A stretch of DNA of 64,000 nt from an uncultured Bacteroidales bacterium (GTDB taxonomy: Bacteria > Bacteroidota > Bacteroidia > Bacteroidales > Paludibacteraceae), in NCBI GenBank assembly GCA_900316995.1, contig ONEZ01000010.1, positions 3,712 through 67,711 on the forward strand, written 5' to 3'. Both the position numbers and the translations under genes were made by a program. Positions 12,108 to 62,027 of the stretch are shown piece by piece. Positions within the stretch are counted from its first letter, which is position 1, and each line of letters begins with the position of its first letter. Below the pieces are notes generated by a model that worked only from the letters and a program-made list of their open reading frames with translations, made no database searches and was not told the DNA's origin.

Positions 12108-12112
12108 AAAAA

Positions 12113-18258: not shown

Positions 18259-18297
18259 AATCTGCAAAATTACCTTATTTTTACCAATTGCCACAAC

Positions 18298-20902: not shown

Positions 20903-20912
20903 CATCGCTTTC

Positions 20913-20997
20913 GGAGAGATGGTAGAGTGGTCGATTACAGCGGTCTTGAAAACCGCCGTACCGAGAGGTACCGGGGGTTCGAATCCCTCTCTCTCCG
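20913..20997 (+). tRNA. tRNA-Ser (anticodon UGA)
   Basis: The acceptor GGAGAGA pairs with TCTCTCC. It has a long variable arm, the anticodon loop CT-TGA-AA and the T-arm GGTTCGAATCC. Length is 85 nt and CCA is not encoded. Confidence 0.92.
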
Positions 20998-21028
20998 CAA
21001 CGAGGATTTAAGGATTAATCCTATAGCA

Positions 21029-21778: not shown

Positions 21779-21853
21779 ATATCAAAAATTGTTTGTACCT
21801 TGCAAATGTACATTATTTTTACTAAATTTGCACATAGCCTTAAGATTTTGCGC

Positions 21854-42332: not shown

Positions 42333-42608
42333 TTACTTGCTAACCTTCTCAACAAAAGTCTTCGCTGGCTTAAATGCCGGGATTGAGTGAGCAGGAATAT
42401 TTATAGTGGTGTTCTTTGAGATGTTACGAGCAACCTTAGCAGCACGCTCCTTAACAATAAAGCTACCAAAACCTCTCAAATAAACATTCTCTTTTGCCTC
42501 AAGGGACTTTCTAACCTCTTCCATAAAAGACTCAACAACCTGCATAACTGCAACCTTGTCAATGCCGGTGCTATTGGAAATCTCGTTTACAATTTCAGCT
42601 TTTGTCAT
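42333..42608 (-). CDS. hup: HU-family DNA-binding protein
   Basis: It has MTKAEIVNEIS... and the RGFGSF..K.R..R..RNP-like beta-arm. The ORF is 91 aa. Confidence 0.93.
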   Translation of the reverse strand: MTKAEIVNEISNSTGIDKVAVMQVVESFMEEVRKSLEAKENVYLRGFGSFIVKERAAKVARNISKNTTINIPAHSIPAFKPAKTFVEKVSK

Positions 42609-42698: not shown

Positions 42699-45600
42699 TT
42701 AATTTTTTTTGATTTTGCCGGATAATATAAGTTTGTTAGAACTATATAAAAATGAATATATCAGTATTCCACCCTTATCCTCATTGTAAGTGTAACCGTT
42801 TGCACACGGGGCGCATATATCCTCACAGTTAGGGTCCACCACCGGAAGCCTGACTATACGCTCCACCGCACCACCAAGGGTACTTAAAACCACACTCACA
42901 TTCTCACATTTGGTTGTAAAGCGCCATCCTTCTGAAACAGAACCAGTTATACACACATCATTAGCGGTAGGAACTGAAGTGGGATCAAAACTGTCAGGCA
43001 CAAAATGCACTATGTATTTTGACTTGTGTACGCCATCCTGCGCCACCACCTGCACCTCAACTGCAATCTCTGTTTCAGATTCACTTCTCACAACCATCAC
43101 ACTCTGGCCGCTCTCCATGGCCGTAAAGGTTACAAGCTCCTTATCCACCGTGCCGGCTCCAAACGGCAGCTTTATTTCATAGTCATGCACATCAGGGCTG
43201 AAATTATCCAGAATTACATCCTTATAATATATAGCCTGAAGTTTTGTGTTATCAGACAGTTTGATAGATGTTTTAATCACATAGTTTGCTGTTTTTCCGC
43301 TTGCCGCCACCGATGTCAGGGTTATGCTCTCACGCGTAACCTGACGCATTGACACCTTGGCGTTAGGACTCAAGGTCTTGTACTCCACGTCTTTCACCAG
43401 TGGTATAAAAGAGGAGTCTGTATAGGCCTCATGCTCCACAGTGTAAACCGGACGGTCCGGATCAAAACCCTCTATGGTCTTACCAAACACCCTTAAATCA
43501 CTGAGTCGGGCCTCATCATCAGGCTGAATCAGAAAATCAACCACATACTCATTAGGCACACCCACCTCAGACACCACGTCAAGCACCACATTAATGTGTG
43601 ACTCATCCAGCACAGTAATTTTTGGACTTACACTCTGGGTTCCAGGAGGAGTGAGGTCATAAGTAACCGCCACATCGGTCGATGTGCCGTACGGGAGCTT
43701 CACTTCATATTCGTTCACATTCGGATCAAACCCTTCAATCTTGACACCGTTGTAGTATATCATATCAAGCGTGCCCACTTCACTTGGCACAGGTGATATT
43801 TCCACCGTGTATTTTTTATCATTACTACCGTCAGCGGATTTTACCGTGATATTATAAACAGAGCTTTCTCCCTTTATCTCAGTGGTTACTGTCTGATCCT
43901 CCGCAAACTTTACTGCCTCTATCACTGGTATTTTATACTCTCCAGCTTTACGTTTCACATAGTAATAGGTACCATCCGGCTTAAAGTCAAGTTCGTGTCC
44001 TATTACCCTGATGTTTTTAAGATCAGCCACATCTTTATCACCCTGCAAAAATAATATTTTGTATGAGACAGACTCTTTGAGTGACTCGGAAACAGCGGTA
44101 ACAGTAACAGACAATCCTTCCTTACTCTCCGCATAATCCACATTGCATATCTGGCTTGACGATTTACCTATCACCGTTACGTCTGGTATATAGCGGACAC
44201 CTGCCGGCAGTTCATACTCATACAGGTGTTTCTCAGGATCAAAACCTTCAAGAGGCTTACCATCAACCATAATTGATTTTACGCCCACATTATCAGTTTT
44301 GCTTCTGGTAACATTAAGGTTGTAGTCTGTATATGTGCCATCCTCAGCATAACTTCTTATGCTTATATGATGCACATTATCCTTATACTCACCATAAGTA
44401 ATGTCATACATCTGGTCCTCCACCTCGCCTTCTATCTCTATCAAAGGAGTGCCTGTGCTTTCTGAGCTTATTATTGCCATGACATCAGTACCGTTTATTA
44501 CAGCCTTTTTTCCATCCACTGTAATTTTAGCAATCTTAGAACTATACTTAAACCTAATGTAATCAACTTTGAGTTGGGAACAGAGGTCATAGCTAACAAA
44601 ATCAAATCCATTCGCATAATATGGAAAATCTTTAACACTGTTATACTTTGCACTGTTGACAATTATATTAAGCTGGCTTGGATTCTTGAATTTACCTGTT
44701 ATTGGTACACTCTTAACCTTCCATTTGTCATTATATTCATAATCCGTAAAAGAGTATGTCTTAGTGCCACTGTCATCTGTCAGAGAACAATCCATGTGAA
44801 TGTAGTTATCGTCGATGCCTATATAGTCCTTGTTGTTTGAGACTGGATTGTATCTCATCTCAATGGCATCAGGTGTATTATGGAACGGTATGCCTCCTGA
44901 GATCTTTACAGTGGTGTAACTGGCCGCCTTAAAATCAACCGCTATATCACCTAAAGTCATAAGGCCAGGGAAACGGCCAGCCAAACTCCAATAATTACGT
45001 ACCGTTTTTAGAGTAACCTGACCTTCTCCCTTTTCAATAAGGTATTTGGTGTTAAATCGTCCGTAGGAGCTTTCCACATCAGCAGGGACAACCCAGCCCT
45101 TGGGCTTTTTGGTATCCTTCTCCTCAGAATGCATACAGTCAGTCCACTCGTCAAACTCACCATTAGGTATCTCATCATTCTCATAGTGCAGGTATAAGTC
45201 ATATCTGGCGGGACCGAGTTTACCTGAACTTCCAGTTTCAAACCTTACATGGTTGTTTTCAGAGATGCTCTTATTAAAGGGGACATCAGCAACCGCTTCA
45301 ATGCTTTTGGGAGCCCTCTTTACATTTATTATGTACTTGAATTTATCTGGTCTGAAATTTTCAATCGGCTTACCATCTACAACAATGCCTTTAATTGCAT
45401 TGTAAGATTTATGTCTGTTAAAATGGAGAGTGTATCTCACATTTTCCACACCTTTCTGATTAGATATAACATCCAAAAATGCATGACCTTCACCAGCCGT
45501 TGACAGTACTACTGATTGAATATCATAGCCCTTTACATATCCTACAACCAAAGAGTCCGCCGTGTTTATATCAACTGTATATTCAAATACGTCCGGATTA

Positions 45601-47507
45601 AAACCTTCAACCTCCTTACCGTTTACATTTATTGATTTAAGACGGTTATTCTTTCCTGCATAATCATGAACATACCTTAATGTGTATGTTTTCAAGGCGC
45701 CGCTCTTTGATGTCACCATCAGCGATGTTGAGTTTTCATACGGACGGTCAACAATCTTAACAGTGGACTCTTCACACCTTCTTTGGCAGGAGATAACCCT
45801 GTTACTGCCGTATTTCTCATACTCTATGGTGTATCTGACAACATCTGGATCAAAGTCATCTACTATCTCTCCATTAATCATTATCTGGTCCAGCCTGTTT
45901 TCTGTAGGGTCATCACACTCACTCGGAGCATCAGAGTGCTTGACGCTGAACATTATCCTATATTCACGTGGCAACCTGGCACCTGCTACTGACACTGTTA
46001 CCGTAGAGACTTCTGATACATCCCTGCTGTCAACAACAACGGTCTGCATACCTTCAGGATATGCAGACTCGTATGTTATCTTTTGGGCGCCTGTAGTTCC
46101 TTCAGGCAGTTCCACCCTATATATGTTTTTTGTGGGTGAGAAATCCTTTATGGGTTCACCATTGATAAAAATGTTTTTTAGTGTGGTGTCATCAAACTCC
46201 TTAACTCTGAAGTTTATAGTGTACGTGGCACTTATGTCCGCATCCTGGGCGTGTGTAACTATTTTAAGAATTCCAGGCACCTTAAACTCCCCTATTTCAT
46301 AACTCTGATTTTCGTTTGCCTTTTCCACCTCTATCTTTGGTAGTGACGTCCCGTATGGCAGTTCCACCTCATAATCAGTTATATAAGAGTTGAAACCTGG
46401 AATTTCCACTCCATTTACTTTAATGGATTTCACATACGGGCTGTTATCAGTCATTGAAACAAAGTAGATATTATACGTGGAGGTGGAGCTACCATCCTCT
46501 GCTCTTACAGTTATGGTTGTGGCTCCTTGGTCTTTGGGATTGTAGTTAATGGAGATTTCATCACCTGAAAGAAGACGTCCGCTACGGTAACAGGTTATCT
46601 TTGGCAGTTTGTCATCAACTACAGAATAGTAGTATTCATATTTGTCAGTTTGAAACTTAGGATAGGCAAAGCCGTCAAAACGCAGTTCGTGAATCTTTGA
46701 TGAATATATGAGGCTAATATCATCCACCAATAGCTTGCTTGTCTTACTAAAGGTAGTGGAGGCACGCTTGTTTGGATAGTTGCCTGAACACAATATTATG
46801 TTCATCTTCTCAGGTATATCATTTGTCATATACTTTATAGGCACCTTTATCAATGACCACTCCGGGTAGTCCTGAGTACTCTTAAGCCAACCTTCTGCCA
46901 CCTGCACTGCATTTCCGCTTGGGGTGCTACAGGTGTTACCGTCTGATGTACGGCATATATCTGACTCCTCATCTGTATGTGACGTATTAATGCAACTGCC
47001 AGCTTTTGCCTTATATTTATTGTTATGGGCTGTACCCTTCCATGAGTAATACATAAGACTCATTGTCTCACCGGCAGGGGCAATGCGTTTTACCCATACA
47101 GCCATTGTGTCAGGACGAGCTGTCCATGACATACCGCCATCTGTACCGCCAGAGCCTGTATTAATAGGATCTGTCCACGTGTCATACGTAGCCCACGGAG
47201 TACCAAGTGTAATCCATGATGGAGCCACATCATAAAAGCCTACCGCGCCAACCTCTTTTGACTGTAGTTCCACAGCATAGCTGCCCGAGTGCGCATCAGA
47301 TGTGCGCTTGCCAATTGGAAATTTATAACCTGCTTGAGAAACATTAGACAGGTTCCATACGTCCGGCTGCGGTTCATCCTTAAAAGGTCCCTTACCCCAG
47401 CCTTCAAAACTACTGTTTGGCAACTGGTAGTTGGCAGAATACAAGACAGGGAATGACAAACATAATATTGCTACTGTCAGTAGGCGTTTTCTTAATAAAG
47501 TCTCCAT
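42699..47507 (-). CDS. Giant surface protein A (1602 aa): signal peptide, PCMD-like domain, ~6 cadherin-like beta-sandwich repeats, second PCMD-like domain, ~6 more repeats, conserved Cys-containing C-terminal domain
   Basis: The N-terminus YQLPNSSFEGWG... and the internal IPNGEFDEW... start PCMD-like domains (nt ~44520-45180 for the second). The ~80-aa repeats follow L..I.V.G..I.GF.P....Y.V.LP.GT........Y.I.F, which matches my memory of the Cadherin-like (PF12733) domain. It is a paralog of the next gene. Confidence 0.8.
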   Translation of the reverse strand: METLLRKRLLTVAILCLSFPVLYSANYQLPNSSFEGWGKGPFKDEPQPDVWNLSNVSQAGYKFPIGKRTSDAHSGSYAVELQSKEVGAVGFYDVAPSWITLGTPWATYDTWTDPINTGSGGTDGGMSWTARPDTMAVWVKRIAPAGETMSLMYYSWKGTAHNNKYKAKAGSCINTSHTDEESDICRTSDGNTCSTPSGNAVQVAEGWLKSTQDYPEWSLIKVPIKYMTNDIPEKMNIILCSGNYPNKRASTTFSKTSKLLVDDISLIYSSKIHELRFDGFAYPKFQTDKYEYYYSVVDDKLPKITCYRSGRLLSGDEISINYNPKDQGATTITVRAEDGSSTSTYNIYFVSMTDNSPYVKSIKVNGVEIPGFNSYITDYEVELPYGTSLPKIEVEKANENQSYEIGEFKVPGILKIVTHAQDADISATYTINFRVKEFDDTTLKNIFINGEPIKDFSPTKNIYRVELPEGTTGAQKITYESAYPEGMQTVVVDSRDVSEVSTVTVSVAGARLPREYRIMFSVKHSDAPSECDDPTENRLDQIMINGEIVDDFDPDVVRYTIEYEKYGSNRVISCQRRCEESTVKIVDRPYENSTSLMVTSKSGALKTYTLRYVHDYAGKNNRLKSINVNGKEVEGFNPDVFEYTVDINTADSLVVGYVKGYDIQSVVLSTAGEGHAFLDVISNQKGVENVRYTLHFNRHKSYNAIKGIVVDGKPIENFRPDKFKYIINVKRAPKSIEAVADVPFNKSISENNHVRFETGSSGKLGPARYDLYLHYENDEIPNGEFDEWTDCMHSEEKDTKKPKGWVVPADVESSYGRFNTKYLIEKGEGQVTLKTVRNYWSLAGRFPGLMTLGDIAVDFKAASYTTVKISGGIPFHNTPDAIEMRYNPVSNNKDYIGIDDNYIHMDCSLTDDSGTKTYSFTDYEYNDKWKVKSVPITGKFKNPSQLNIIVNSAKYNSVKDFPYYANGFDFVSYDLCSQLKVDYIRFKYSSKIAKITVDGKKAVINGTDVMAIISSESTGTPLIEIEGEVEDQMYDITYGEYKDNVHHISIRSYAEDGTYTDYNLNVTRSKTDNVGVKSIMVDGKPLEGFDPEKHLYEYELPAGVRYIPDVTVIGKSSSQICNVDYAESKEGLSVTVTAVSESLKESVSYKILFLQGDKDVADLKNIRVIGHELDFKPDGTYYYVKRKAGEYKIPVIEAVKFAEDQTVTTEIKGESSVYNITVKSADGSNDKKYTVEISPVPSEVGTLDMIYYNGVKIEGFDPNVNEYEVKLPYGTSTDVAVTYDLTPPGTQSVSPKITVLDESHINVVLDVVSEVGVPNEYVVDFLIQPDDEARLSDLRVFGKTIEGFDPDRPVYTVEHEAYTDSSFIPLVKDVEYKTLSPNAKVSMRQVTRESITLTSVAASGKTANYVIKTSIKLSDNTKLQAIYYKDVILDNFSPDVHDYEIKLPFGAGTVDKELVTFTAMESGQSVMVVRSESETEIAVEVQVVAQDGVHKSKYIVHFVPDSFDPTSVPTANDVCITGSVSEGWRFTTKCENVSVVLSTLGGAVERIVRLPVVDPNCEDICAPCANGYTYNEDKGGILIYSFLYSSNKLILSGKIKKN

Positions 47508-47637
47508 ATCGTTTAGTTCTGTTATTTACACTAACCATAAAATTAGTTAATATATATTAACAATAAACTATTTAATTGTTAAATATTTTAGCATTTAACA
47601 AGGCGGAGTAAAATTTTAACACTATCTGAGCATATAA

Positions 47638-47666
47638 CAAAAAAAAGCGGGGAACTAAGTCCCCGC
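47638..47666 (-). terminator. Rho-independent terminator of giant gene B
   Basis: The hairpin gcgggga-actaag-tccccgc is followed on the minus strand by a run of 8-9 T. The two giant genes therefore appear to be separate transcription units. Confidence 0.75.
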
Positions 47667-47692
47667 CTCTGTAATAAATTTGTAACAAATTA

Positions 47693-50600
47693 TCACCTGC
47701 ACCTTAACTTGCCTGTGAGTACACGCTGCTTCTGTGCATATAGGAAGTTATAGGTTACCACTTGGTTCTTGACACCGTAATAAACGTAACCTTCAGCATC
47801 AGGGCTACAGATGTCCTCGCAGTTTGGATCAACTGAAGGAAGTTCTGCGATTGAAAGGAACCTACCGGCAAGGTCTGTTATTATTACGGTGAGATTCTTA
47901 CACTTGGTTGTGAATTTCCAACCACCATCTGCCGTACTGGTAACACAAACTTCATTTTGTGTTGGAACCACTGTCGGGTCAAAGTCATCAGGAACAAAGT
48001 GAATTGTGTAAATCTGATACGTCTCTCCGTCCTGAGCAGTTACCTGAAGCTCCACATCAAGGTTGTTCTTCACAACCATGACAGTCTGACCAGGTTCTTG
48101 TGTCTTGTATGTTACAAGTTCCTTGTCGATGGTATTTGAACCAAACGGAAGTTTTATGGTGTATTCATAAACATCTGGTTCAAAGCCGTCAATCAACGCA
48201 TCCTTGTAGAGAATAGCAGCAAGATGTGCATTGTCTGAAACTCTGATTGTGGTTTTGATTACATAGCTTCTAACCGCACCGCTTGGAGCAGTAACTTTTA
48301 GAATCACACACTCTCTTGATGGTTGTGAAACCTCAACTGTCTCATTACTGCTCATCTTCACATACTCCACATCCTTTGGATAAGGAAGAAGCGTGGAGTC
48401 ACTGTAGGCTTCAAGTTCAAATGAGTAGCTATCTATTTCCGGATTGAATCCAACAATAGACTTTCCAAATGTCTTAATATCAGACAGTCTTGTCTCTGAA
48501 TCAGGCATGACTTTAAATATCACAGTGTACTCATTTTCGTCACCACTTTCAGCCTTTACTGAGATTACAGACTTCCATCCATTTTGTGTACCTGTAGTTA
48601 CAACACTTGCACTCTGAGATCCTGGAACTGAGAAATCAAATGTAACCTCTGGAGCATCTACAGTACCGTATGGGAGGTTGACTTCGTAGTCATTATCCTC
48701 TGGCAAGAAATCTGGAACATTTTTACCATTATAGTAAATCATGTCAAGAGTGGTGACATCACATGGCAACAGAGAGAACTTTATGGTGTATGTGTTTGAT
48801 GTGACACCATCAGCCGCTGTAACCTTTATGGTTGAAACACCTGTTACGCTTGTGGTATAGTCGGTTTCAACAGTCTGCTCATCTTCACCTTTTTCGTAAT
48901 CAATGGAAGGTACACTCTTGGCATTATACGGTAGCTTCACCTCATATAAGAACACATCTCCGTCAAATGATGGTATCAACTGGCGTTCATCTCCGAGAGT
49001 GATACTCTTTAGTGTGGCATTATGAGAGAGTTCCCTTTCATAACGTACAACGTAAACGCGCTTATCAAGATTTTGAGCTGTTACGGTAACTGTGTGAATA
49101 AGCCCGTCAACAGATACAGTCTTCTCTATTGTCTGATACTCGTCACCAGCTATATAAGTAACCTCAGGAATAGTTTCAGTTCCTATTGGGAGTATTATCA
49201 CATAGTCTGTTTTCTCCGGCTCAAAGCCTTCAACAGTCTTACCGCCTGACATAAGATCAGACAGTGCGGTGTTGGTTGACTTCTCAACATTGAGAGCAAC
49301 AGAGTAAGTCTGACTGTAATCTGTGTTCTGAGCAACCACGTGAATATTCTCTACATTATCTAATCTGCTCTGGTTTACAGTCTGCCACTCTGTACCCTTG
49401 TCATAACTAACCTCTACTTTAGAAAGGTCTGTGCCAAGAGGAAGCGTTAGGCTATATTCAAGAGTCTCCTTGCTAAAGCCCTCAATCTGAATGCCATCAA
49501 CATATATCATGTTAAGAGTGGCATCGGTGCTAAGAACTACAGTAAAATCAACTACGTAATTCTTTTCATTACCGTTCTCGGCTTTAACATTTATAGTAAC
49601 CTTTGTTCCTTCCACACTCTTTACAATTTTCTGTGCAGGGTGGCCGGCGTCAAACGTAACTTCAGGTATATCTGTTCTTCCTACCGGCAGAGTAATGCTA
49701 TACAATGTCTGCTCAGGATTGAAGCCTTCTATCTCTACCCCGTCTGTATAAATCATGCTGAGGTCTGCATTGTCTGATTTCTCCACACTAAAGTGAATTG
49801 TGTAGGTGCTTGTATTTGAACCATCCTGAGAAACCACATTTATTATGGCGTCTCCATCCAATCCATTTGTAGTTACTGTGATAACCTGACCAAAGTCACC
49901 CATAACAGTTTCAATGGTAGGCAGAGTAACAGTGCCGGCTGGAAGTTTAACACTGTACTCATAGTTCTTTGGTGCAAAGCCTTCCAAAGAAACTCCGTCA
50001 AGAGTTATATCTGCAAGGTCGCTACCCGATGCCAGCTTACGGTCAAATGCAACTACATACTTGTTTTTAGCACCTGATGCAGCAGTAACGTTGATAATAA
50101 ACTCACTATCTGTGGTCTCTGTCTCAACTGTCTGGTAAGGATCTCCCTTGAGGTAAGTTATAACAGGGTCTTCCTTACCCGATGCAACCTCCACCACATA
50201 ATTAAACTTCTCAGGCTCAAAATCAGGAAGTGGCTCATAGTTAGCAGATATTCTGCTGAGCAGTGCATTATCAGATGGTATAACACTGAAATTAAGAACG
50301 TATGTATTCTCATTACCGCTTTCAGAAGTAACATTAACAAGACTTGACTCATTAATGCCACCAATAGTAGCAGAGAGTGTCTGACCCAATGCGCCACCGG
50401 AAGCCCAAACCTCTGGTACATCAGTGGTACCTACAGGTAGGTTAATATTGTACTCATTTTTCTGAGGATCAAACTCTGCAATAGATGTTCCGCCAAGTTT
50501 AATATCAGAAAGAGTATTATTTGTGTTACGCTCAGCTTCAATAGCAACAGTGTAAACCTGAGTATCTGTGCCATTGGCGGCAGTAACAGTAAACTTATAC

Positions 50601-53600
50601 ACACCTGAGAGTTCATCATACTCTGAGCTTAGTGTCTGTTCAGCCTCTGCAAGATATGCGTCTATCTGGCGATTATTGTATAGTGTAACTGGGACTGTAT
50701 ATTCTGTTACATTTGGATTGAAATCCTCAAGAGTCACACCATTCAACTTAATGTCACTGAGTTTCACATTGTTTGACTTTACATTGTCAAATGTGAGTTT
50801 GTACTTGTTTGAAGAGGCGGAAACCGCATTGCTAAGCTGCCATACCACAGAATCTGAATTTACGGTAACTATCATGTCATCTTCAGCAAACTCTCTTGCG
50901 TATGCCACAGCCGCAGCCTCATCGTATGGTTTGCTATAAGTGTACTCCTTAACATCAGGGTCAAAGGCAATCTGCTCAGTAGCACCCGTAACCATCATAG
51001 AAGAGAGTTTGGAAGAAGTATTACTCATAGGAAGCACAGAGAAGTTTACTTTATAACTCTTCTGGCTGTTTCCGTCAGCTGACTTAACCACAAACTGAGT
51101 TGCAGAATTGATACCGCCTTCTGTCATTTCAACCGTCTGAGCATCGTATTTCTTGCTAAAGCTTGTAACAGGCAGGCATGTGCTTCCAGCTGCAAGTTCA
51201 ACGTTGTACTCTTCATTATCAGGTGTAAACGCAATGCTGTAACCTTCAACACTTATATTAGTAAGAGTGGCATCGGCAGCACCCTCCTCTGCAAAGTTTA
51301 TTGTATAGGTCTTTGATGAAGAGCCATCCTCAGACTGGGCATTGATTACAGTCTTGCCAGATGTATATTCCACATTCAAAACCTGATGATTTGATGCGCT
51401 TCCCACCACGATGTCAGGCATAAAGCGTATATCAGGCACTGTAACACTGTATTCAGTTACAGACGGATCAAAACCAGCAAGATCAGCACCATTGATTTTT
51501 ACAGATTTAACATCGGCTACAGATGACTTTGGCCTTGTGATGGTAAGAGTATAGTCTGTATATGACATATCCTCAGCATAACTGCGTATGTTTACCTTAC
51601 GCACTCCGTCAACCTCTTTTCCGTAACTGATATTGTACATCTGGTCATCAACAGCACCAGTAATACTAATTTCAGGAAGTCCGCAATAGTCAGCGTCTAT
51701 GGTGGCGGTAGCTGATGTTCCACTCAAAGCGGCAACCGTACCGTTAACCTTTATTGAATTAATCTTTGAACTATATACAAGCCTTATGTAATCAACACGT
51801 AACTGAGAGCCCGTCGCCACTTTAAAATTAGTCAGACTTCCATACTTATCAAAACTCTTGGCGTTGTCATACTTACTACTATTCACCCACAGATTGAGTG
51901 TTTTTGGAGTTTTTAAATTAAAGCCTAAGCCCTTGGTGTATGTTTTCCAAGTATTATTATATGTTCCGTCAGTGTGTTGGAATGTCTGTGTCGAAGAGCC
52001 GTCAGAAAGAGTACACATTATACGTATATTATCAGACATACCAATTACATCACTATTAGTGGTCACTGGATTATATCTGAAACTTATGTCATCAGGAGTA
52101 TTTCTAAATGTTATACCCTCTCCTATTTCAGTTACAGACTCACCAGCCAGACTAACCTGTACGTTCATGCTACCAATTGACATAATTCCTGGGAAACGAC
52201 CTCCTAAATACCAATAATTTCTGACCGATGTAAGTTCAGCGTATCCGTTGCCTTGTCTTACTGGATAAGATGTTGTAAAATACTCTACATTATCACGGTG
52301 AATCCAGCCATCTGGTTCAGGCCTTACTGCAAAATCAGCAGGTACAGTCCAGCCTACCGGTTTCTTTGCTGACGTATTAACAGATGCGGTAGTCCACTCC
52401 GTAAACTCTCCGTTAGGAATAACGTCTGTGGTATAGTGGAGATACAAATCATACGTAACAGCACTTAACGTACCAGTACCACTCGTCTTGAAACGGATAT
52501 AGTTTGTTGTCTGTTCTGTAGCGGCAATCTGTGTTCCGTCTGGCAATTCTGCAATAACAGAAGCAGGAACGTCATTTACAAGCACCACATACTTGGTTTT
52601 GTATGGGTCAAAGTTCCCAATGGCATTACCATCAATTTCAATTTTTGAAAGTACATTCCACTTTTTCAGATGATTATATGATATGGTGTAAACAGCGTCA
52701 TCAACATTATCCTGATTTGAATGTACTGTAATCACAGATTTATTAAGACCTAATGTGGCAACAGATACTCGCTGCTCATTATAATTCTTAATGACAGTTA
52801 TAACCGGAGCCACGCCTTCATCGATATCTGCAACATAATCAAACTTATCGGCTGCAAAACCGCTGACTGGCAAGCCGTTCACGAGAATGGATTTCAGTGT
52901 GTTATCCTCTCCGTCAAAATGATACTTGAATTTAAGTGTGTAAGTCTTAACATCGCCGTTCTCTGCTATGACTTTTATAACAGAAGCATTAACTGACGTA
53001 CTGTCTGAGACAACAACCTTTGAGTAGCAATCTGATTTCAAATAGCTTATCACACCCTTCTTGTTATCATTGCCAAGCTCCACAACGTACGATGTAACCT
53101 CAGGGTCAAAACTATCAACACTAACTCCGCCAACCTTTATATCATCAAGAGTGCATACTGAAGACTTCTCTCTATTTAATGTTACGGTATAGTCTTTAGC
53201 AGTAACACCATCGGCAGCTATTACAGTAATAACAGTAGGAGTGCCGAGCCTACCATACTTAATAATGTAGGATTGTCCATTAGAGCCCACACAATTTACT
53301 GCACATATATCAGCCGCTCCCTTAGGAAGTGTCACATTATAGTCAAATGTTTCTGGAGCGAATCCACTTATTGACTCAAAGTTCTGTGTCTGTGCGTTGT
53401 ACAACTGCAAATCAGACAAAAGAGCATTGGTCTCAGCCTTTTCAGTAAATCTTACATTATAAACTGATTTTGAACCATTTTCAGCTAAAACAGTGATAAC
53501 CGCATATTTGCCGTCATTTGAAAGTATCACAATCTGAGACTCGGTAGCCTTTGTATATGCAACAACTGGCACAGAGCCCTTTTTAGCCTCAACTTCATAA

Positions 53601-56600
53601 TCAAACACATCACCAGAGAAGCCTTCTATTTCAGTACCATTAACAGATATTCCTGAAAGAAGTGCGTTAGTATCAACCTTGTATGTGAAATGTACTGTAT
53701 AAGTGGCTCTCTCTGTTCCATCCTCTGATGTCACATAGAAAATAGCATCACCGTTAAAGGATGGTATCACTTCATTCAAACGAGATGAAGTATTAGATTT
53801 TACAGCAACCACTGAAGGACAGGCCTGACCTTTTTCCATGTAATAAGTATATTCATAAACCTCAGGATTGAAACCCTCTATAGATACGCCGTCTATTAGA
53901 ATATCAGAAAGTAGTCCGTCAGAGGATTTTTCAGTAGAGAACTTCAGGTAATATATTTTTGTATTGCCGTTCTCTGCCATAACTGATATGGTTGAGGTTC
54001 CGTTAACACTTCCCTCCACTAACTCAACACGCTGTTTTTCATCACCCTTAACGAATTTGATGGCAGGCAATGAATGTGTGCCTTGAGCCAGTCTGATTCT
54101 ATATTCTGTTGTTTCAGGATTAAATCCTTCCACTGTAACACCGTTAACGCTAATATCTGCCAGATTGCAATTTCCGCCCTCTGCTGACACGAATTTGATT
54201 ACATAGACGTTAACAGCACCCTCTTCCGGCACCACTTTAATATTTGCGGTTCCTTCAAGCTGAGGTTTAGTAATAACCACATCCTGGTTACCATCCTTTT
54301 CAACTGTTATAGCAGGACATACAACCGCTTGTGGGCTAAGGGTATATGTATAAGAATAGTTATCAGGTGTGAAACCTTCAAGCGCCACTCCGTCTATAAA
54401 TATATTCTTTAGATTTGCACTTTCTGACTTCTGCACTGAGAAGTTTATGCTGTAAGTGCGTCCGTCACCTGTTTCTGCAATTGTACGCAGGGTTGTAACA
54501 CCTTTCACTCCACCCTTGTTAACATATACCCTTTGGTATTCATCACCAGGGGTGTATGTAATCTCAGGGAGAACTGTGGTTCCTGCTTCAAGTTCATAAT
54601 CATATTCAAAGACATCTGGAGCGAAGCCAGAAATTGTCACACCACCAACCTTAATATCAGCAAGCAAAACATTATCTGACTTTTCTACACTGAATGTAAG
54701 GGAGTATGTGGTAACATCGCCGCTCTGAGCCTTTACCCTAATGGTTGTCACACCGTTCACTCCACCCTCCTTCTTAGTTATCTGCTGAAGGTTATCATAC
54801 GGTGTGTAGGTTATTTCCGGAAGCACCTTGGTTCCACGAGACAGCACAATACTATATTCTGTAACATCCGGACTGAAGCCTTGAATGCTTTCTCCACCAA
54901 CCTTAATATCTTTAAGAGTTGAATTGGTGGCTTGTGTAACACTGAACGCAATGCTGTATGTGGTTACGGTACCGTCCTGTGCTGTCACAATAATCTTGGT
55001 AGTACCGTTTACGCCTCCATATATTACCCTTACACTCTGATAATCATCACCTTGTATCCATGTTACTGCTGGCAGTTCGGTAGTACCTACCGGCAATACG
55101 TATGAGTAAGAAGTAACGTCGGCTGAGAAGTCTGGCAAAGTAACTCCGCCCACCTTCAAGTCAGAGAGTTTTGAATTTGATGACTTTGTAAGAGGGAAAC
55201 TAATCCTGTATATAGAAGTGTTTATTCCGTTTTGAGCCTTTACTGTTATTTTTGTAATTCCGTCAATGCCGCCATCTTCTTTAGTAATAGTCTGATAGTT
55301 ATCACCAGAAGTCCATGTTACGGCTGGTACAGATGTGGTACCGAGCGGCAACGGACATGAATAAGAAAGAGTGGCTGGTGCAAAACCTGGTATTGTAACA
55401 CCTCCAACTTTCAAATCCTGCAAATACGAATAGGCTGACTCGGTAACATTATATGAGATCTTATATACTCTGCTGCTTGTAGCCTCTGGTGCGGAAACAG
55501 TGATTGTTGAAGTTTCTGAAATATCACGGCTGTCAACAACTATGGTCTGGGCACCTTCAGGATATGCGGACACGTATGTAATCTGCTGAGCACCAGTGGT
55601 TCCTACAGGAACATTAACCTTATAGAATGTCTTGGTTGGAGAGAATCCCTCAATAGATACCCCGTTCACAAGAATATCCTTCAGTGTGGTGTCACTTAGT
55701 CCCTTTAATTCAAATTTTATATTGTAAGTAACTGAATAGTCAGTATTCTCAGCATATACTGTAACCTTGGCTGTTCCTGGAATTGTGTAACTTGAAATTT
55801 CAACGGTCTGCTTGTTGTTAGCTTTCACCACATCAATAACAGGCTTCTGCTCTGTTCCGTATGGAAGTGACACAGTGTAATCAGATACGTAAGCGTTAAA
55901 TCCAGACAATTCCGTACCGTTTACCTTAATTGAAGTTGGATACTGATTGGTATCACGCTTTGACACAAAATATATTTTGTATGTGCTTGTAGAACTACCA
56001 TCCTCCGCCTTTACAGTAATAGTGGTAGGAGTTCCATCCTTTGTGCCATATTGTATTGAAATCTCACTGCCGCTTAACTGACGGTCACTACGGAAGCAAG
56101 TGATAACAGGCATTTCATCACCTGTCAATTCGTATGTGTATTCATATTTATCTTTTTTGAATTTAGAATACGCCATACCATTGAAACGCATCTCATAAAT
56201 CTGTGATGAATAGATAAGATGCACATCATCAACTATCATCCAACTTGTGGTGTATTGTCCGCTATTTGCTCTCTTATTGGGGTAATTTGAGCCAGACAAT
56301 ATGATGTTCATTTTTGTAGGCCTGTCATTATTGAAATATTTAATAGGAACCTTAACAAGAGTCCAATTACCATAATTAACTCGAGACCTCAGCCAGCCTT
56401 GAGCTACTTGAACAGCATCGCCAGAAGGGCTCTGACATTCATTACCGTCTGATTTACATATATCTGACTCCTCATCTACTCGTTGCGTAGTGGTACATCC
56501 GCCATTTTTGTTGCCGTATTTATTATTAGTTGCCGTACCATGCCATGAATAGTACACAATATTCATATCCTCATTGCCACCAGCTGTTCCACGCTTCATC

Positions 56601-57007
56601 CATACGCCTAATGAATCCGGTCGTGCAGAAAAGGCTATGCCACCAGTGGTACCAGCTGTAGCGCTACCCACATTAATGCCGTCAAGATACGCCCATGCTA
56701 CACCAAGAGTCACCCATGACGGAGAAACCGCTTCAATTCCGAAGCCTCCGACTTTCGTACCCTGACATCTTACAGCATATTGTCCAGTGTGAGCATCATT
56801 TGTTCTTTCACCCACATTGAAGTCAAAACCAGCCTGGGAAACGTTTGACAGATTCCATGAGTCTGGTTGCGGTTTACCGTTCCAGGAACTATTCCATGCT
56901 TCAAAACCAGCATTAGGGAGCTGATACTGCGCACTTGCTGAAACCACTGGAAGTAGTAACAATACAAATGTAAAATTAACTAATTTTTTGATAAAATTCT
57001 GTATCAT
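47693..57007 (-). CDS. Giant surface protein B (3104 aa): same architecture as A but with ~15 + ~15 cadherin-like repeats
   Basis: It has the signal peptide MIQNFIKKLVNFTFVLLLLPVVSASA and PCMD-like domains at aa ~28-270 and ~1560-1790 (nt ~51640-52330). I parsed ~30 repeats by hand. The C-terminal ~100 aa are homologous to protein A. Confidence 0.8.
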   Translation of the reverse strand: MIQNFIKKLVNFTFVLLLLPVVSASAQYQLPNAGFEAWNSSWNGKPQPDSWNLSNVSQAGFDFNVGERTNDAHTGQYAVRCQGTKVGGFGIEAVSPSWVTLGVAWAYLDGINVGSATAGTTGGIAFSARPDSLGVWMKRGTAGGNEDMNIVYYSWHGTATNNKYGNKNGGCTTTQRVDEESDICKSDGNECQSPSGDAVQVAQGWLRSRVNYGNWTLVKVPIKYFNNDRPTKMNIILSGSNYPNKRANSGQYTTSWMIVDDVHLIYSSQIYEMRFNGMAYSKFKKDKYEYTYELTGDEMPVITCFRSDRQLSGSEISIQYGTKDGTPTTITVKAEDGSSTSTYKIYFVSKRDTNQYPTSIKVNGTELSGFNAYVSDYTVSLPYGTEQKPVIDVVKANNKQTVEISSYTIPGTAKVTVYAENTDYSVTYNIKFELKGLSDTTLKDILVNGVSIEGFSPTKTFYKVNVPVGTTGAQQITYVSAYPEGAQTIVVDSRDISETSTITVSAPEATSSRVYKISYNVTESAYSYLQDLKVGGVTIPGFAPATLSYSCPLPLGTTSVPAVTWTSGDNYQTITKEDGGIDGITKITVKAQNGINTSIYRISFPLTKSSNSKLSDLKVGGVTLPDFSADVTSYSYVLPVGTTELPAVTWIQGDDYQSVRVIYGGVNGTTKIIVTAQDGTVTTYSIAFSVTQATNSTLKDIKVGGESIQGFSPDVTEYSIVLSRGTKVLPEITYTPYDNLQQITKKEGGVNGVTTIRVKAQSGDVTTYSLTFSVEKSDNVLLADIKVGGVTISGFAPDVFEYDYELEAGTTVLPEITYTPGDEYQRVYVNKGGVKGVTTLRTIAETGDGRTYSINFSVQKSESANLKNIFIDGVALEGFTPDNYSYTYTLSPQAVVCPAITVEKDGNQDVVITKPQLEGTANIKVVPEEGAVNVYVIKFVSAEGGNCNLADISVNGVTVEGFNPETTEYRIRLAQGTHSLPAIKFVKGDEKQRVELVEGSVNGTSTISVMAENGNTKIYYLKFSTEKSSDGLLSDILIDGVSIEGFNPEVYEYTYYMEKGQACPSVVAVKSNTSSRLNEVIPSFNGDAIFYVTSEDGTERATYTVHFTYKVDTNALLSGISVNGTEIEGFSGDVFDYEVEAKKGSVPVVAYTKATESQIVILSNDGKYAVITVLAENGSKSVYNVRFTEKAETNALLSDLQLYNAQTQNFESISGFAPETFDYNVTLPKGAADICAVNCVGSNGQSYIIKYGRLGTPTVITVIAADGVTAKDYTVTLNREKSSVCTLDDIKVGGVSVDSFDPEVTSYVVELGNDNKKGVISYLKSDCYSKVVVSDSTSVNASVIKVIAENGDVKTYTLKFKYHFDGEDNTLKSILVNGLPVSGFAADKFDYVADIDEGVAPVITVIKNYNEQRVSVATLGLNKSVITVHSNQDNVDDAVYTISYNHLKKWNVLSKIEIDGNAIGNFDPYKTKYVVLVNDVPASVIAELPDGTQIAATEQTTNYIRFKTSGTGTLSAVTYDLYLHYTTDVIPNGEFTEWTTASVNTSAKKPVGWTVPADFAVRPEPDGWIHRDNVEYFTTSYPVRQGNGYAELTSVRNYWYLGGRFPGIMSIGSMNVQVSLAGESVTEIGEGITFRNTPDDISFRYNPVTTNSDVIGMSDNIRIMCTLSDGSSTQTFQHTDGTYNNTWKTYTKGLGFNLKTPKTLNLWVNSSKYDNAKSFDKYGSLTNFKVATGSQLRVDYIRLVYSSKINSIKVNGTVAALSGTSATATIDADYCGLPEISITGAVDDQMYNISYGKEVDGVRKVNIRSYAEDMSYTDYTLTITRPKSSVADVKSVKINGADLAGFDPSVTEYSVTVPDIRFMPDIVVGSASNHQVLNVEYTSGKTVINAQSEDGSSSKTYTINFAEEGAADATLTNISVEGYSIAFTPDNEEYNVELAAGSTCLPVTSFSKKYDAQTVEMTEGGINSATQFVVKSADGNSQKSYKVNFSVLPMSNTSSKLSSMMVTGATEQIAFDPDVKEYTYSKPYDEAAAVAYAREFAEDDMIVTVNSDSVVWQLSNAVSASSNKYKLTFDNVKSNNVKLSDIKLNGVTLEDFNPNVTEYTVPVTLYNNRQIDAYLAEAEQTLSSEYDELSGVYKFTVTAANGTDTQVYTVAIEAERNTNNTLSDIKLGGTSIAEFDPQKNEYNINLPVGTTDVPEVWASGGALGQTLSATIGGINESSLVNVTSESGNENTYVLNFSVIPSDNALLSRISANYEPLPDFEPEKFNYVVEVASGKEDPVITYLKGDPYQTVETETTDSEFIINVTAASGAKNKYVVAFDRKLASGSDLADITLDGVSLEGFAPKNYEYSVKLPAGTVTLPTIETVMGDFGQVITVTTNGLDGDAIINVVSQDGSNTSTYTIHFSVEKSDNADLSMIYTDGVEIEGFNPEQTLYSITLPVGRTDIPEVTFDAGHPAQKIVKSVEGTKVTINVKAENGNEKNYVVDFTVVLSTDATLNMIYVDGIQIEGFSKETLEYSLTLPLGTDLSKVEVSYDKGTEWQTVNQSRLDNVENIHVVAQNTDYSQTYSVALNVEKSTNTALSDLMSGGKTVEGFEPEKTDYVIILPIGTETIPEVTYIAGDEYQTIEKTVSVDGLIHTVTVTAQNLDKRVYVVRYERELSHNATLKSITLGDERQLIPSFDGDVFLYEVKLPYNAKSVPSIDYEKGEDEQTVETDYTTSVTGVSTIKVTAADGVTSNTYTIKFSLLPCDVTTLDMIYYNGKNVPDFLPEDNDYEVNLPYGTVDAPEVTFDFSVPGSQSASVVTTGTQNGWKSVISVKAESGDENEYTVIFKVMPDSETRLSDIKTFGKSIVGFNPEIDSYSFELEAYSDSTLLPYPKDVEYVKMSSNETVEVSQPSRECVILKVTAPSGAVRSYVIKTTIRVSDNAHLAAILYKDALIDGFEPDVYEYTIKLPFGSNTIDKELVTYKTQEPGQTVMVVKNNLDVELQVTAQDGETYQIYTIHFVPDDFDPTVVPTQNEVCVTSTADGGWKFTTKCKNLTVIITDLAGRFLSIAELPSVDPNCEDICSPDAEGYVYYGVKNQVVTYNFLYAQKQRVLTGKLRCR

Positions 57008-57174
57008 TTTATTAAATTTAAGATTAGCTTTAGTAGTATTTACACATTATTATAGAAAAGGGTATACTTCGGGCACAAAAATAGTTAAATTATTTTCGCT
57101 AAAAAAAAGCGAAATGTTAAAATTTTTATGAAGTACTGTTTTTTAACATTTGATTCAAGGATATGTAATAAAAA

Positions 57175-57204
57175 AGAAACAAAGGGGCATTCCCCTTTGT
57201 TTCT
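57175..57204. terminator. Bidirectional terminator-like hairpin (13-bp stem)
   Basis: The hairpin agaaacaaagggg-catt-cccctttgtttct is flanked by an A-run and a T-run. It lies between the PG0541-like gene and the promoter region of giant gene B. Confidence 0.7.
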
Positions 57205-57314: not shown

Positions 57315-57608
57315 TTAAACCGTGGCTTCCACGTTCCAAACAAAGGCCCTCACACCCACCTCCTTGTTCCTAAGGTCAAGTTTGTGAACGGTTTTTAGAA
57401 GTTCCGGGACTTTCTCATCATCAACCACAGTGATAACAGCTGAATTCATTTCCGGCCAGCAGTGAGTGCCACGGCGAGGCTCGCCTCCGTTTGTACCTCT
57501 ACCCTGCACCTCTTCAAACATAGTGAATCCGTTTATTTTAAGCTCATCAAGCAAATACTCCACTCTCTCCGTATTTGCCTGATTAAATACTATAAATACT
57601 GCTTTCAT
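57315..57608 (-). CDS. PG0541-family (P-II-like) transporter-associated small protein
   Basis: This 97-aa ORF starts at the ATG at 57608 (MKAVFIVFNQ...). Its size, ferredoxin-like pattern and position downstream of an RND pump match the PG0541 family as I recall it. Confidence 0.6.
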   Translation of the reverse strand: MKAVFIVFNQANTERVEYLLDELKINGFTMFEEVQGRGTNGGEPRRGTHCWPEMNSAVITVVDDEKVPELLKTVHKLDLRNKEVGVRAFVWNVEATV

Positions 57609-57633
57609 AATTTCCTTTAATACAATTTTCAAA

Positions 57634-57814
57634 ATTCTACAATTTTCAAGAAGGAAATTATGAAATCTTTCCTTCTTTTATGAGGCTTCGCCTCTCCTCG
57701 TGCTGCGCACGGAGGGCTGACGCCCTCTGTCGCTACGCTCCTTAATTATTTTATCATTCTACAATTTTCAAGAAGGAAATTATGAAATCTTTCCTTCTTT
57801 TATGAGGCTTCGCC
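57634..57814. repeat. 122-bp-period tandem duplication (two identical 59-bp copies at 57634-57692 and 57756-57814), each with a 10-bp-stem hairpin
   Basis: The unit is attctacaattttcaagaaggaaattatgaaatctttccttcttttatgaggcttcgcc, repeated identically as far as I can read. The hairpin is aagaaggaaa/tttccttctt. The spacer carries further GC-rich hairpins (gagggc-tgac-gccctc). Confidence 0.9.
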
Positions 57815-57817
57815 AAA

Positions 57818-60800
57818 TCAACTCTCCTCCAACTGCATGAAGATATATTCCTTCCGCTTCTCCGCATCCCTGTCACGCTCTCCATGACGTGATATTGCCG
57901 CGTAGAATATAGGAACAACCAACATTGTCACTACAGTTGACACAAGCAGACCACCTATAACAACTATACCCATAGGCTGCCACATTTCAGAACCCTCACC
58001 TTGGCTGAGTGCCATTGGAACCATACCAAGAAGTGTTGTAAAGGCTGTCATAAGAACAGGACGCAGACGTGACGCACCTGATATTTTAATAGCCTCATTA
58101 AGTTCATATCCACGTTCTCGCATAAGATTTATATAGTCAACAAGCACTATACCGTTTTTAACGGCTATACCAACAAGCATTACTATACCCAAAGCACCAA
58201 TCATATCAAGAGTCGTATGAGTTATCCACAAGGCAAGCACAGTACCAGACAACGCAAACGGTATAGAACCAAGCATTATGATGAACGGCTTGGAGAATGA
58301 TTCAAACTGCGATGCCATAACCACATAAACAAGCAGTATTATCAAAGCACCGAGAAGCAATATATCACCAAATGTATCTTGCTGGTCTTCATAATCTCCA
58401 GCATAACGCACTGTTACGCCAGCAGGTCTGTCAAGTTTCTCCATTGCCTTCTGTATATCAACAGCCAGTTCGCCAAGAGATGTGTTATACGGAGTAACAG
58501 CCACTGTCACACAACGCTGACGAGTCTTGCGTTCAATCTCAGGCGGCTGGAAATACTCTACCACACGAGCAATTTCATTAAGTTTAACCAACGCTCCTGA
58601 AGGAGTAGGAATTGTGAGATTTTCTATCTTAGAGATTGAATTCCTATCATCCTCAACAAGACGTACAACTATGTCATACTCATCACCGTCCTCCTTCAAG
58701 AAACCAGCTGTATATCCGTTAACACGGTTACGGACGTACGTGGAAACCATTGCTGATGTCAGACCATGACGTGACGCCTTCTCCTTATCAACAACTATTT
58801 TAAGTTCCGGACGGTCATCCTCACGACTGATGTCTATATCTCGCGCGCCTGCCACCTCTGTCTGAATCAGACGTTTAACATCCTGAGCATATTTGTTGGT
58901 AACATCAAAATCATAACCATATATTTCAACATCAACGGTTGACGCGCCACCACCCATGCCGCTTGAAACCTGACACGTGTAATCAATTATCTCAGGATAA
59001 CGCTGCATCTCTTTACGCAAGGCTTCAGCGATGTCAAATATTGAACGATCACGCTCATATTTTTTTGTACATCTGATACGCATCTGTATCTTATTGTTTG
59101 ACGTATTATTTATAAGAGCCGCAAAACCAGCATCGTCGGCAGAACCTGTGGTGGTACTTATAAGAATAATTTCAGGAGCAAGAACCTCAAAACGCTCTTC
59201 GAGTGTACGGCTTAACTTCATAGCCTCCTCCACTCTGGTGGTTTGATGCAGTTCTATATTCACAGTCAGACGACCGTTATCCGTCTGTTGCATAAAGTCT
59301 GTACCCACCCAGCCCAAAATCATTGGCGATATGGAAGCAATGAAGAACAGTATTGTTACAATTATAGTAACAACTTTATGGTTAAGACACCAGCCAAGAA
59401 CACGCGCATAAAACGCATCCACCTTATCAAGGAATCCCACCACATATTTCTGATACCAGCCTGCCTGAACACTCTCCTCTATAAGTTTACCATTCTCAAC
59501 CCTCACCTTCTTGGCTCTCAGTAATTTAGAGCAAAGCATTGGCGTAAGAGTTATAGCCACCGTGGTTGAAGTACATACAGTGATGGTAACAATCCAGCCA
59601 AGTTCCTTGAACATAATACCTGCCATACCCGTAAGCATCGTTAAAGGCACAAACACAGCACAGGTAACAAGAGTTGTAGCTATTACAGACACCCAAACCT
59701 CATTTGTCGCGTAAATGGCGGCCTCACGTGGATTTGAGCCTCTTTCAATATGCTTAGTAATATTTTCAAGCACAACTATGGCATCGTCCACAACCATACC
59801 TATGGCTATTGTAAGAGAGCAAAGGGAAATAATATTAATTGACCTGCCGGCAAACTGCAAGTAGATAAACGCTACTATAAGGGCGATAGGAATGGTTATT
59901 CCTATTATGAATGTCGCACGCCACCTGCCAAGGAAGAACAGAACCACCAAAACCACAAACAAAAGCGCATACATAATAGACTCTTCAAGAGAATTAATAG
60001 AGTTCTGTATGTTCTCTGATGAATCATATATAGTCTGAATCTTAACATCAGGCGGCAAGGTCTTTTTTATCTCTTCAATTTTCTTGTTTACATCACGGCA
60101 AATCTGCACTGTATTGGCTCCAGACTGCTTCATTATTATCAGTCGCACACCATCGCCACCGTTAAGTTTCTCATCAAGCGATACGTCTTTAATTGTATCT
60201 CTTACAGTGGCTATATCCCTCACATACACCTGCTTACCTGCCTTTGTAGTTGTTATGACAAGGTCTTCTATCTCCTTGCTCTCAACAAATTCACTACGCA
60301 CCTGAAGCTGATACTGCTCCTCCAGCATTTTAATCTTACCAGATGACATATTAAGGTTATTGGCACTAATAGCCGAACCTACAGTTTCAAGGGGTATGCC
60401 GTAAGAATCAAGTTTTTCCTGGTCTATATCTATATACACATAACGTTCCGGCTCTCCAGACATAGATATGTTACCAATGCCATTCACCTGATTTAGCATA
60501 GGAATCACCTCATCATCAAGCAGTTTCTCAAGCCCTGGGTATGTTTCATCAGCCGTGACAGCAAATTGCGCTATAGGCATTGAACTTGAACTGAGTTTGA
60601 AAATAATAGGAGTGGAAGCTCCGTCTGGAAGATTATCCTTAGCCATCTCTATATAGGAACGCACATCATTTGAGGCCTCATCAAGATTCCACCCCCACTG
60701 GAACTCAAGTGTGACAACTGATATATTATCCTTTGATTTGGATGTGAGTTCCTTCAGACCGTCAACAGAGTTAAGAGTGTTCTCCATCAGTTTGGTTACA

Positions 60801-62013: not shown

Positions 62014-62027
62014 ATTATGTTTGTTTA

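Follow-up and report, generated by a model that had tools for sequence, protein, structure and literature searches.

Two adjacent giant genes of an uncultured Bacteroidales bacterium raise the question of what kind of protein would be built as two similar halves, and why those halves should be of matching length. The genes, here called A and B, lie on the minus strand of a 64,000-nucleotide stretch of DNA from the family Paludibacteraceae (assembly GCA_900316995.1, contig ONEZ01000010.1, positions 3,712 to 67,711), which as a whole is referred to below as the window. An earlier note on this DNA, made from the sequence alone, had proposed that A and B are neighbouring paralogs that share one domain plan, and both open reading frames (ORFs) were found to be present and intact. 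The two proteins are tandem paralogs, being 46% identical across their first 750 aa and matching collinearly over the remainder. Each consists of a signal peptide, an N-terminal domain (D1), a first run of repeats, a second domain (D2), a second run of repeats and a C-terminal domain (CT), so that the proposed plan holds for both. D1 begins with YQLPN (at residue 27 of A and 28 of B) and D2 with IPNGEF (at residue 780 of A and 1530 of B), and both domains terminate in ..VDD/VDYI..YSS(K/Q).

A hidden Markov model (HMM) of the repeat, iterated on A and B, detected 12 copies in A (6 + 6) and 30 copies in B (15 + 15) with a period of about 84 aa, which reproduced the counts previously made by hand; the two repeats that flank D2, one closing run 1 and the other opening run 2, were matched only in part. 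The naming of these repeats as cadherin-like was borne out by PF12733 (Cadherin-like beta sandwich), the sole Pfam family detected in the whole A and B proteins, which passed its gathering cut-off of 24.2 bits in both (38.2 bits in A, 46.6 bits in B) and also matched the repeat consensus (35.7 bits, E 1.2e-8) and the homolog P0024 (85 bits). In an AlphaFold2 model of D1 plus repeat 1, residues 246-322 were predicted to form six beta strands, with a predicted local distance difference test (pLDDT) score of 86-95. Pairwise comparison of all 42 repeats matched A01-03 with B01-03 and A04-06 with B13-15 (A06 weakly) in the first half of the proteins, and A07-09 with B16-18 (A08 weakly) and A10-12 with B28-30 in the second, leaving B with nine additional internal repeats per half. 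These best matches agree with the earlier proposals that the first and last three repeats are orthologous between the paralogs and that the expansion was internal and balanced. Identities within the three best matches of each repeat were about 22-64%, and Tandem Repeats Finder (TRF) found no tandem DNA repeat in the genes, in which the recurring stretches are short and 60-82% identical. We therefore rejected recent slippage as the origin of the repeats, as the earlier note had also done, and the arrays appear to be old.

The balance between the halves of B is shared by a family of related proteins. An exhaustive search with the D2 profile found 99 representatives; in about 78 of these, D2 has a roughly central place in a giant protein of 1600-5055 aa. 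A scan with the D1 profile, covering one genome per species, yielded at least 388 relatives, of which we surveyed the best 80 loci; nearly all of these came from Paludibacteraceae/Bacteroidales metagenome-assembled genomes (MAGs) of the gut of horse, ruminants and humans, and most encode a protein of about 3100 aa with D1, 15 repeats, D2, 13-15 detected repeats and the C-terminal domain. The ORFs, 1.6-5 k aa long, have stayed intact throughout the family, whose named members are all called 'hypothetical protein' and belong to Paludibacteraceae or Bacteroidales MAGs, all records found being metagenome assemblies. The doubled module is the standard form of this conserved, unannotated family and is not peculiar to the genome of the window. 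Within the species of the window no variation in repeat number was seen, all full-length members of the clusters of B and A having 3104 aa, or 1583-1602 aa, and in the 14 proteins in which 15 + 15 repeats were detected, all 30 positions have an identity of their own, with strong positional orthology. Because each position keeps its identity, we regard the 15 + 15 plan as ancient.

We defined arm length L1 as the interval that separates D1 from D2, and L2 as the interval that separates D2 from the C-terminal domain, and compared the two in 138 complete, non-identical proteins, most of the 15 + 15 form and with size classes spanning 6 + 6 to 26 + 27. L1 and L2 were tightly correlated (r = 0.98, slope 1.04, mean difference 4 aa), and the standard deviation of their difference was 51 aa, less than one repeat, as against 355 aa when L2 was shuffled among the proteins. 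In a neighbour-joining tree made from D1, D2 and the C-terminal domain, non-modal sizes occurred at a minimum of 10 separate places, and independent contrasts on this tree gave r = 0.97 and a slope of 1.02. When a contrast exceeded 126 aa in either arm, the change was of the same sign in both arms, and of nearly equal size, in 35 of 36 cases. The two arms thus change length together across the family, extending to all of it the balance that had been proposed for A and B, and this arm-length rule implies a structural constraint.

The largest expansions suggest how such matched lengths arose. In P0055 (24 + 25 repeats), run 1 reads as positions 1-4, (5-6-7)x4, 8-15 and run 2 as positions 16-23, (24-25-26)x4, 27 onwards. 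Copies of the amplified unit share 63-76% identity in arm 1 and 59-70% in arm 2, as against 31-36% between the arms. They represent two separate amplifications of the same size and similar age. The same comparison of cross-arm with within-arm identity (59-76%), together with the identity of only about 21% between D1 and D2, led us to reject the idea that the balance arose by concerted duplication of one entire half. All five expanded proteins, from three places in the tree, grew at run 1 positions 4-7 and run 2 positions 24-26, which are mirror partners (position i with position 31-i), although these mirrored sites may simply be recombination hot spots. Among shortened forms, the asymmetry correlation (r = -0.69, in lineages that are not independent) points to mirroring.

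D1 and D2, which we refer to as heads, were compared as profiles with hhalign, which aligned them over 205 columns with 98.9% probability (E 2e-17) and so established the relationship between the two that had been claimed from inspection. D1 has an additional Cys-containing loop of about 40 aa relative to D2. The label 'PCMD-like', also given to them by the earlier note, stood as far as relatives of the window's proteins and the fold are concerned, and found no direct counterpart in a PF13201 (PCMD) match within the window. D1 of 12 of 30 family members matched PF13201 at E<=0.1 (best E 3e-10), and the homolog P0024 scored 33 bits, above the gathering cut-off of 28. The D2 profile found P0158, a 309-aa protein with PF13201 and the type IX secretion system (T9SS) tail PF18962, and aligned with its residues 29-220 (97.6% probability, E 2.7e-12); the partial Pfam match of PF13201 on P0158 (residues 40-136) lies inside this stretch. 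A scan of A and B against NCBIfam found nothing. From these comparisons, the D1 and D2 copies of the window are best described as divergent PCMD relatives, below Pfam-level membership.

Predicted structures pointed in the same direction. The AlphaFold model of D1 plus repeat 1 had a pLDDT of 87.8, and in a Foldseek search of the PDB with the D1 model the first rank was taken by 3hbz (BT2081; E 1.5e-6), which we take, partly on the strength of its published description, to be the PCMD prototype. Ranks 2-3 were 3s30 (BVU_0247), and the next fold matches were the carbohydrate-binding modules (CBMs) CBM16, CBM61 and CBM22. The D2 model (pLDDT 86.8) had CBM70 (4d0q), CBM61, CBM16, CBM4 and CBM29 as its top matches. 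When PDB sequences were searched with profiles of D1, D2 and the C-terminal domain, no meaningful match emerged, and a word-index homolog search with D2 alone gave no matches, the index appearing to miss giant proteins (P0022 and P0023 were recovered by the exhaustive search). In BT2081 an Ig-like domain precedes a jelly-roll that has a putative glycan pocket, and members of its family occur in polysaccharide-utilization loci (PMC2954218). Taken together, the profile comparisons and models show D1 and D2 to be homologous, predicted PCMD-type beta-jelly-rolls with a CBM-like fold. Both heads carry invariant aromatic and polar residues, and the D1 motif EESD is nearly invariant in the family. 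A GH16-like (glycoside hydrolase family 16) catalytic motif in D1, 'EESDIR', was considered and rejected, as it lies in the D1-specific insertion and is without a second Glu.

The reading that we favour, with moderate confidence, is that A and B are secreted glycan-binding surface fibres with two CBM-fold heads on cadherin-like stalks, whose arms probably pair; a fibril or adhesin appears to be the best interpretation of these proteins, and their surface location, export route, glycan binding and arm pairing are what we infer from it. Each protein would comprise two ancient homologous modules, each formed by a jelly-roll head and a stalk of n PF12733 repeats, with the C-terminal domain closing the chain. 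A signal-peptidase-I signal peptide would carry the protein across the inner membrane, and the C-terminal domain would direct export, anchoring at the outer surface, or both, with the T9SS as the likely route. The repeats would make a stalk tens of nanometres long, and the two heads would bind polysaccharide, plant cell wall or host glycan, giving a long-reach adhesin or tether of which the same cell would have a long version (B, 15 + 15) and a short version (A, 6 + 6). Selection would hold both stalks at equal length, with runs 1 and 2 lying side by side, either in an intramolecular hairpin with D2 at its tip or in an antiparallel dimer in which D2 meets D2. Pairing of the arms, in cis or in trans, is proposed because it is the simplest explanation of the arm-length rule. 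The specific proposal of antiparallel pairing, with repeat i against repeat 31-i in a hairpin (D2 distal, D1 back near the C-terminal domain) or in a D2-D2 dimer, is a tentative one. If it is true, the fibre would be a two-stranded rod of defined length in which a gain or loss in one arm is compensated at the mirror position of the other, a previously undescribed way to build and evolve a bacterial surface fibre or molecular ruler.

As for the route, T9SS export across the outer membrane is plausible because the host is a member of the Bacteroidota, Q or N follows what look like signal-peptidase-I signal peptides at the N-termini, a conserved domain stands at the extreme C-terminus, and T9SS-type tails occur on a PCMD protein (P0158) and on neighbours of the family gene in relatives. 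The N-termini of A and B, as read from their sequences, have basic n-regions, hydrophobic cores and putative cleavage sites ASA/Q or YSA/N. Of the tails encoded by neighbouring genes in related MAGs, one is above the PF18962 cut-off (37.3 bits), with three others narrowly under it. No T9SS machinery genes were identified among the window genes scanned against Pfam.

Several results weigh against this interpretation, or against parts of it. PF13201 matched neither A and B nor their excised D1 and D2 domains at E<=10, and it matched none of 34 family D2 domains. The TM-scores of D1 to 3hbz and 3s30 were modest (0.38-0.47), as were those of the D1 and D2 fold matches as a whole (0.4-0.66). Around the family gene lie housekeeping genes that vary between clades, with neither glycan-utilisation genes nor any other conserved partner among them. 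In the C-terminal domain, which is about 100 aa long and conserved throughout the family, Pfam found a T9SS sorting domain in 0 of 30 members, TIGR04183 matched weakly in 3 of 30 (best E 0.0048), the domain consensus gave no T9SS sorting-domain match, and hhalign of the domain against 12 T9SS tails aligned only a 16-column motif, 'I.vYd..G..l', with 21% probability. With regard to the arms, collinear assignment of the shortened forms gave a position overlap of 164 for mirrored and 158 for parallel pairing, which does not separate mirrored from parallel loss, and a mirror-tree test on 44 proteins of the 15 + 15 form was null (antiparallel P = 0.10, parallel P = 0.08). The arm-length rule has a single clear exception, the sister proteins L048 and P0038, whose arms differ by 2-3 repeat lengths, in opposite directions (about 13/11 and 11/14 repeats); in arm 1 of one protein and arm 2 of the other, the repeat HMM failed to recognise about 200 aa.

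Two further proteins of the window bear on how the sorting-domain searches should be read. A GH53 endo-galactanase (window 21800-23128, plus strand; Pfam 239.6 bits) has a T9SS type A-like tail (...GIYIMRQGGKTSKILK) on which PF18962 was silent at E<=0.01, and a BspA-type leucine-rich-repeat protein (window 29501-31120, minus strand; PF13306, 364.6 bits) has a T9SS-like tail (...GVYVVKIGGEAVKVMVK) that was missed by Pfam. Because these tails went undetected, it seems that the sorting tails of this lineage diverge from the Pfam model. Clear T9SS-looking tails in the window escape PF18962, and the negative result for the C-terminal domain is therefore weak evidence.

The main competitor of a paired fibre is a single extended rod adhesin with unpaired arms, in which D1 would stand at the far tip and D2 halfway, and equal arms would come from some other constraint, such as a placement of the heads at one and two times a set distance, or from a bias in repeat gain and loss. 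The tandem beta-sandwich arrays of known giant adhesins are usually extended rods, we saw no linker or turn at the junction of run 1 and D2, where the last strand of repeat 15 continues straight into D2, and the mirror-tree test found no coupling between the arms. However, a rod of this kind gives no reason for 35 of 36 large length changes to be matched in sign and size, the arms are too dissimilar (31-36% identical) for one recombination event to alter both, and the expansion sites of the two arms are mirror partners; we regard it as possible, though doubtful. Equal arms would also follow if the chain were cleaved before D2 into equal D1-stalk and D2-stalk-CT chains that associate in parallel as a fibre with a two-headed tip, since the heads could meet only if arm lengths were equal. 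The beginning of D2 (D-V-I-P-N-G-E-F..W) resembles the N-terminus of mature D1 and that of P0158, a stand-alone PCMD protein in which this motif comes directly after the signal-peptide cleavage site, and the overlap of retained repeats fits parallel as well as mirrored pairing (158 vs 164). A conserved protease site was not identified, however, and the expansions occurred at mirrored and not at equal positions, which makes such processing unlikely.

Other readings concern the function of the heads. If D1 and D2 were enzymes, namely glycoside-hydrolase-like jelly-rolls, the protein would be a giant cell-surface glycanase, and it is true that the PDB depositors titled both 3hbz and 3s30 'putative glycoside hydrolase', that GH16 laminarinases and glucanases were among the weaker fold matches of D1, and that EESD is so strongly conserved there. 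We nevertheless consider an enzyme the least probable of the readings, because the GH16 TM-scores were low (0.21-0.31) and ranked under those of non-catalytic CBMs, and because EESD lies in an insertion that is absent from D2, off the cleft strand and without the second catalytic Glu of the GH16 motif ExDxxE. For BT2081 itself, carbohydrate binding or metabolism is putative, and catalysis was left as an open question (PMC2954218). A structural envelope or spacer layer of fixed length, of the S-layer or 'fuzzy coat' type and without a specific ligand, would suit a gene present in about one conserved copy per locus in housekeeping, syntenic surroundings, and would also suit the strong conservation of the 15 + 15 form with its position-specific repeat identities and the lack of variation in repeat number within the species of the window (3104 aa, or 1583-1602 aa). 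Against a mere spacer, which seems improbable to us, stand the two conserved CBM-fold heads, whose invariant aromatic and polar residues are not easily accounted for unless they serve a ligand, and the extra paralogs of different length in several lineages.

The coordinates of the domains and of the surrounding features are collected in the table. The terminator that the earlier note had placed between the two genes was recovered as a terminator-like hairpin with a T-run that lies 23 nt past the stop codon of B, and TATTTTTG is assigned to B as a candidate promoter box on the basis of the motif match. Because of this terminator-like hairpin after B, and of the hairpin and -7 box upstream of B, A and B each look monocistronic. 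In the species of the window the gene order is RND pump, P-II-like gene, B, A, HU gene, RNase G and trp operon, and the order around B and A was identical in other samples, with protein sizes unchanged. Clustering of neighbouring genes at 76 loci found no conserved partner, and one other locus (L007) has the same tandem pair.

Table. Features of genes A and B and of their flanks, in window coordinates.
Feature	Coordinates	Strand	Description
Gene B	47693..57007	-	3104 aa: signal peptide, D1, 15 repeats, D2, 15 repeats, CT; modal family member
B signal peptide	56930..57007	-	aa 1-26, ...VVSASA/QYQLPN; looks like signal-peptidase-I type, no lipobox, mature N-terminus Q; read from sequence
B D1	56201..56929	-	aa 27-269; predicted PCMD-type beta-jelly-roll, Cys-containing insertion of ~40 aa (..GGCTTTQRVDEESDICKSDGNECQ..)
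B repeat run 1	52454..56200	-	aa 270-1518; 15 cadherin-like beta-sandwich repeats, 15th a partial repeat-HMM match
B D2	51740..52453	-	aa 1519-1756; second predicted jelly-roll, D1 homolog without Cys insertion
B repeat run 2	47984..51739	-	aa 1757-3008; 15 repeats, first a partial repeat-HMM match
B C-terminal domain	47696..47983	-	aa 3009-3104; conserved in family; possibly a sorting/anchoring domain
Gene A	42699..47507	-	1602 aa: plan as in B but 6+6 repeats; tandem paralog
A signal peptide	47433..47507	-	aa 1-25, ...PVLYSA/NYQLPN; read from sequence
A D1	46695..47432	-	aa 26-271
A repeat run 1	45204..46694	-	aa 272-768; 6 repeats, orthologous to B01-03 and B13-15
A D2	44511..45203	-	aa 769-999
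A repeat run 2	42990..44510	-	aa 1000-1506; 6 repeats, orthologous to B16-18 and B28-30
A C-terminal domain	42702..42989	-	aa 1507-1602
Intrinsic-terminator-like hairpin between B and A	47643..47670	-	11-bp stem (6 G-C pairs), then T-run
Candidate Bacteroidetes -7 promoter box TATTTTTG	57076..57083	-	exact TAnnTTTG match, 69 nt upstream of the B ATG
Bidirectional hairpin	57181-57198		between B and upstream gene
RND efflux operon (outer-membrane factor, membrane-fusion protein, AcrB-type pump) and small P-II-like gene	57315-63320	-	housekeeping flank
RNase G and trp operon flank	34221-40545	+	housekeeping; HU gene at 42333-42608 on the same side

Variants of the module were also found. Stand-alone proteins of about 360-450 aa (P0003-P0018), composed of a signal peptide, D1 and one or two repeats without the C-terminal domain, are common in the same taxa, and no stand-alone gene for D1 plus repeat occurs in the 64-kb window. 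Genes for such stand-alone D1 proteins were located at three loci (L057, 8569-9924; L011, 9923-11128; L070, 7709-8776), in the first two of which the gene stands directly upstream of a giant gene. At L057 the giant gene (9935-21028) encodes 29 repeats in run 1, D2 and 7 further repeats before the fetched locus ends; if its arms are balanced, this protein would be about 5600 aa long and the largest of the family. At L011 the giant gene (11585-19057) encodes a 2490-aa protein with 24 repeats and the family C-terminal domain in which D1 and D2 were undetected, and is flanked by small genes for D1 plus a few repeats. P0118 (218 aa, from a 1085-bp ENA contig) is a D2 fragment followed by an unrelated basic Cys-containing tail (..RLICPNCNSQLDTYKSRNKK..) and probably represents a chimeric or frameshifted short contig.

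Jelly-rolls of the PCMD/CBM-like kind, PF12733 repeats and giant repetitive Bacteroidota adhesins such as SprB are known already. In the literature, we did not find a description of the doubled module, of its conservation as a family, or of length matching between two diverged arrays, which, with every named member called 'hypothetical protein', is in keeping with the earlier suggestion that the architecture is uncharacterised. Paludibacteraceae of the gut are abundant in rumen and hindgut samples, and most of the best 80 loci hold this conserved gene of about 9 kb with an unnamed product. If its product is a glycan-binding fibre, it would be a candidate for the attachment of these bacteria to plant particles or to the host. 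Many lineages reached the arm-length rule, a quantitative regularity, independently and through separate mutations in two diverged arrays; the rule predicts pairing of the arms, and the natural series from 6 + 6 to 26 + 27 is suited to testing this prediction.

Among known systems, the T9SS adhesins SprB and RemA of Flavobacterium resemble A and B in being very large, repetitive Bacteroidota proteins with a signal peptide and a conserved C-terminal domain, and surface filaments are presumed for A and B as well. SprB, which forms long filaments on the cell surface, carries a recognisable T9SS sorting domain of type B and is served by dedicated partner genes; in the family described here, the C-terminal domain has no convincing match to a T9SS model and no partner genes are conserved. 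To our knowledge, neither PCMD heads nor a length-balanced plan of two modules has been reported for SprB. For stalks of matched length, an analogy is provided by tandem beta-sandwich rods that pair lengthwise: the B-repeats of staphylococcal SasG/Aap and the ectodomains of classical cadherins pair the identical repeat arrays of two molecules, and similar lengthwise pairing would explain why the two stalks of A and B match. The family has no sequence relationship to these proteins, and in it, unlike in them, two anciently diverged arrays of one polypeptide would pair.

The heads have closer counterparts. D1 and D2 share the fold of CBM16, CBM61, CBM70, CBM4 and CBM29 (Foldseek probability about 1.0, TM-score normalised by target length 0.4-0.66), but are only 6-15% identical to them, are larger by about 80-100 aa with long loops, and fall outside the CAZy CBM families. 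P0158 has in common with the heads an N-terminal start 'IPNxxFExW...P.GW' and a C-terminal end 'VDD..L.Y'. BT2081 and the PCMD family (PF13201; 3hbz, 3s30) are likewise Bacteroidota proteins, with the same galactose-binding-like or CBM type of beta-jelly-roll as that predicted for the heads, adjoining an Ig-like beta-sandwich in both cases. Proteins of the BT2081 type are small (341 aa in the 3hbz chain), have one jelly-roll after one Ig-like domain, and have SusC-like neighbours in polysaccharide-utilization loci (PMC2954218), whereas the family of A and B has the jelly-roll twice, with 6-29 cadherin-like repeats after each copy, and its proteins of 1.6-5 k aa are encoded outside such loci. 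PCMD-type jelly-rolls, known so far in the small proteins of polysaccharide-utilization loci, would thus also serve as the heads of giant fibres.

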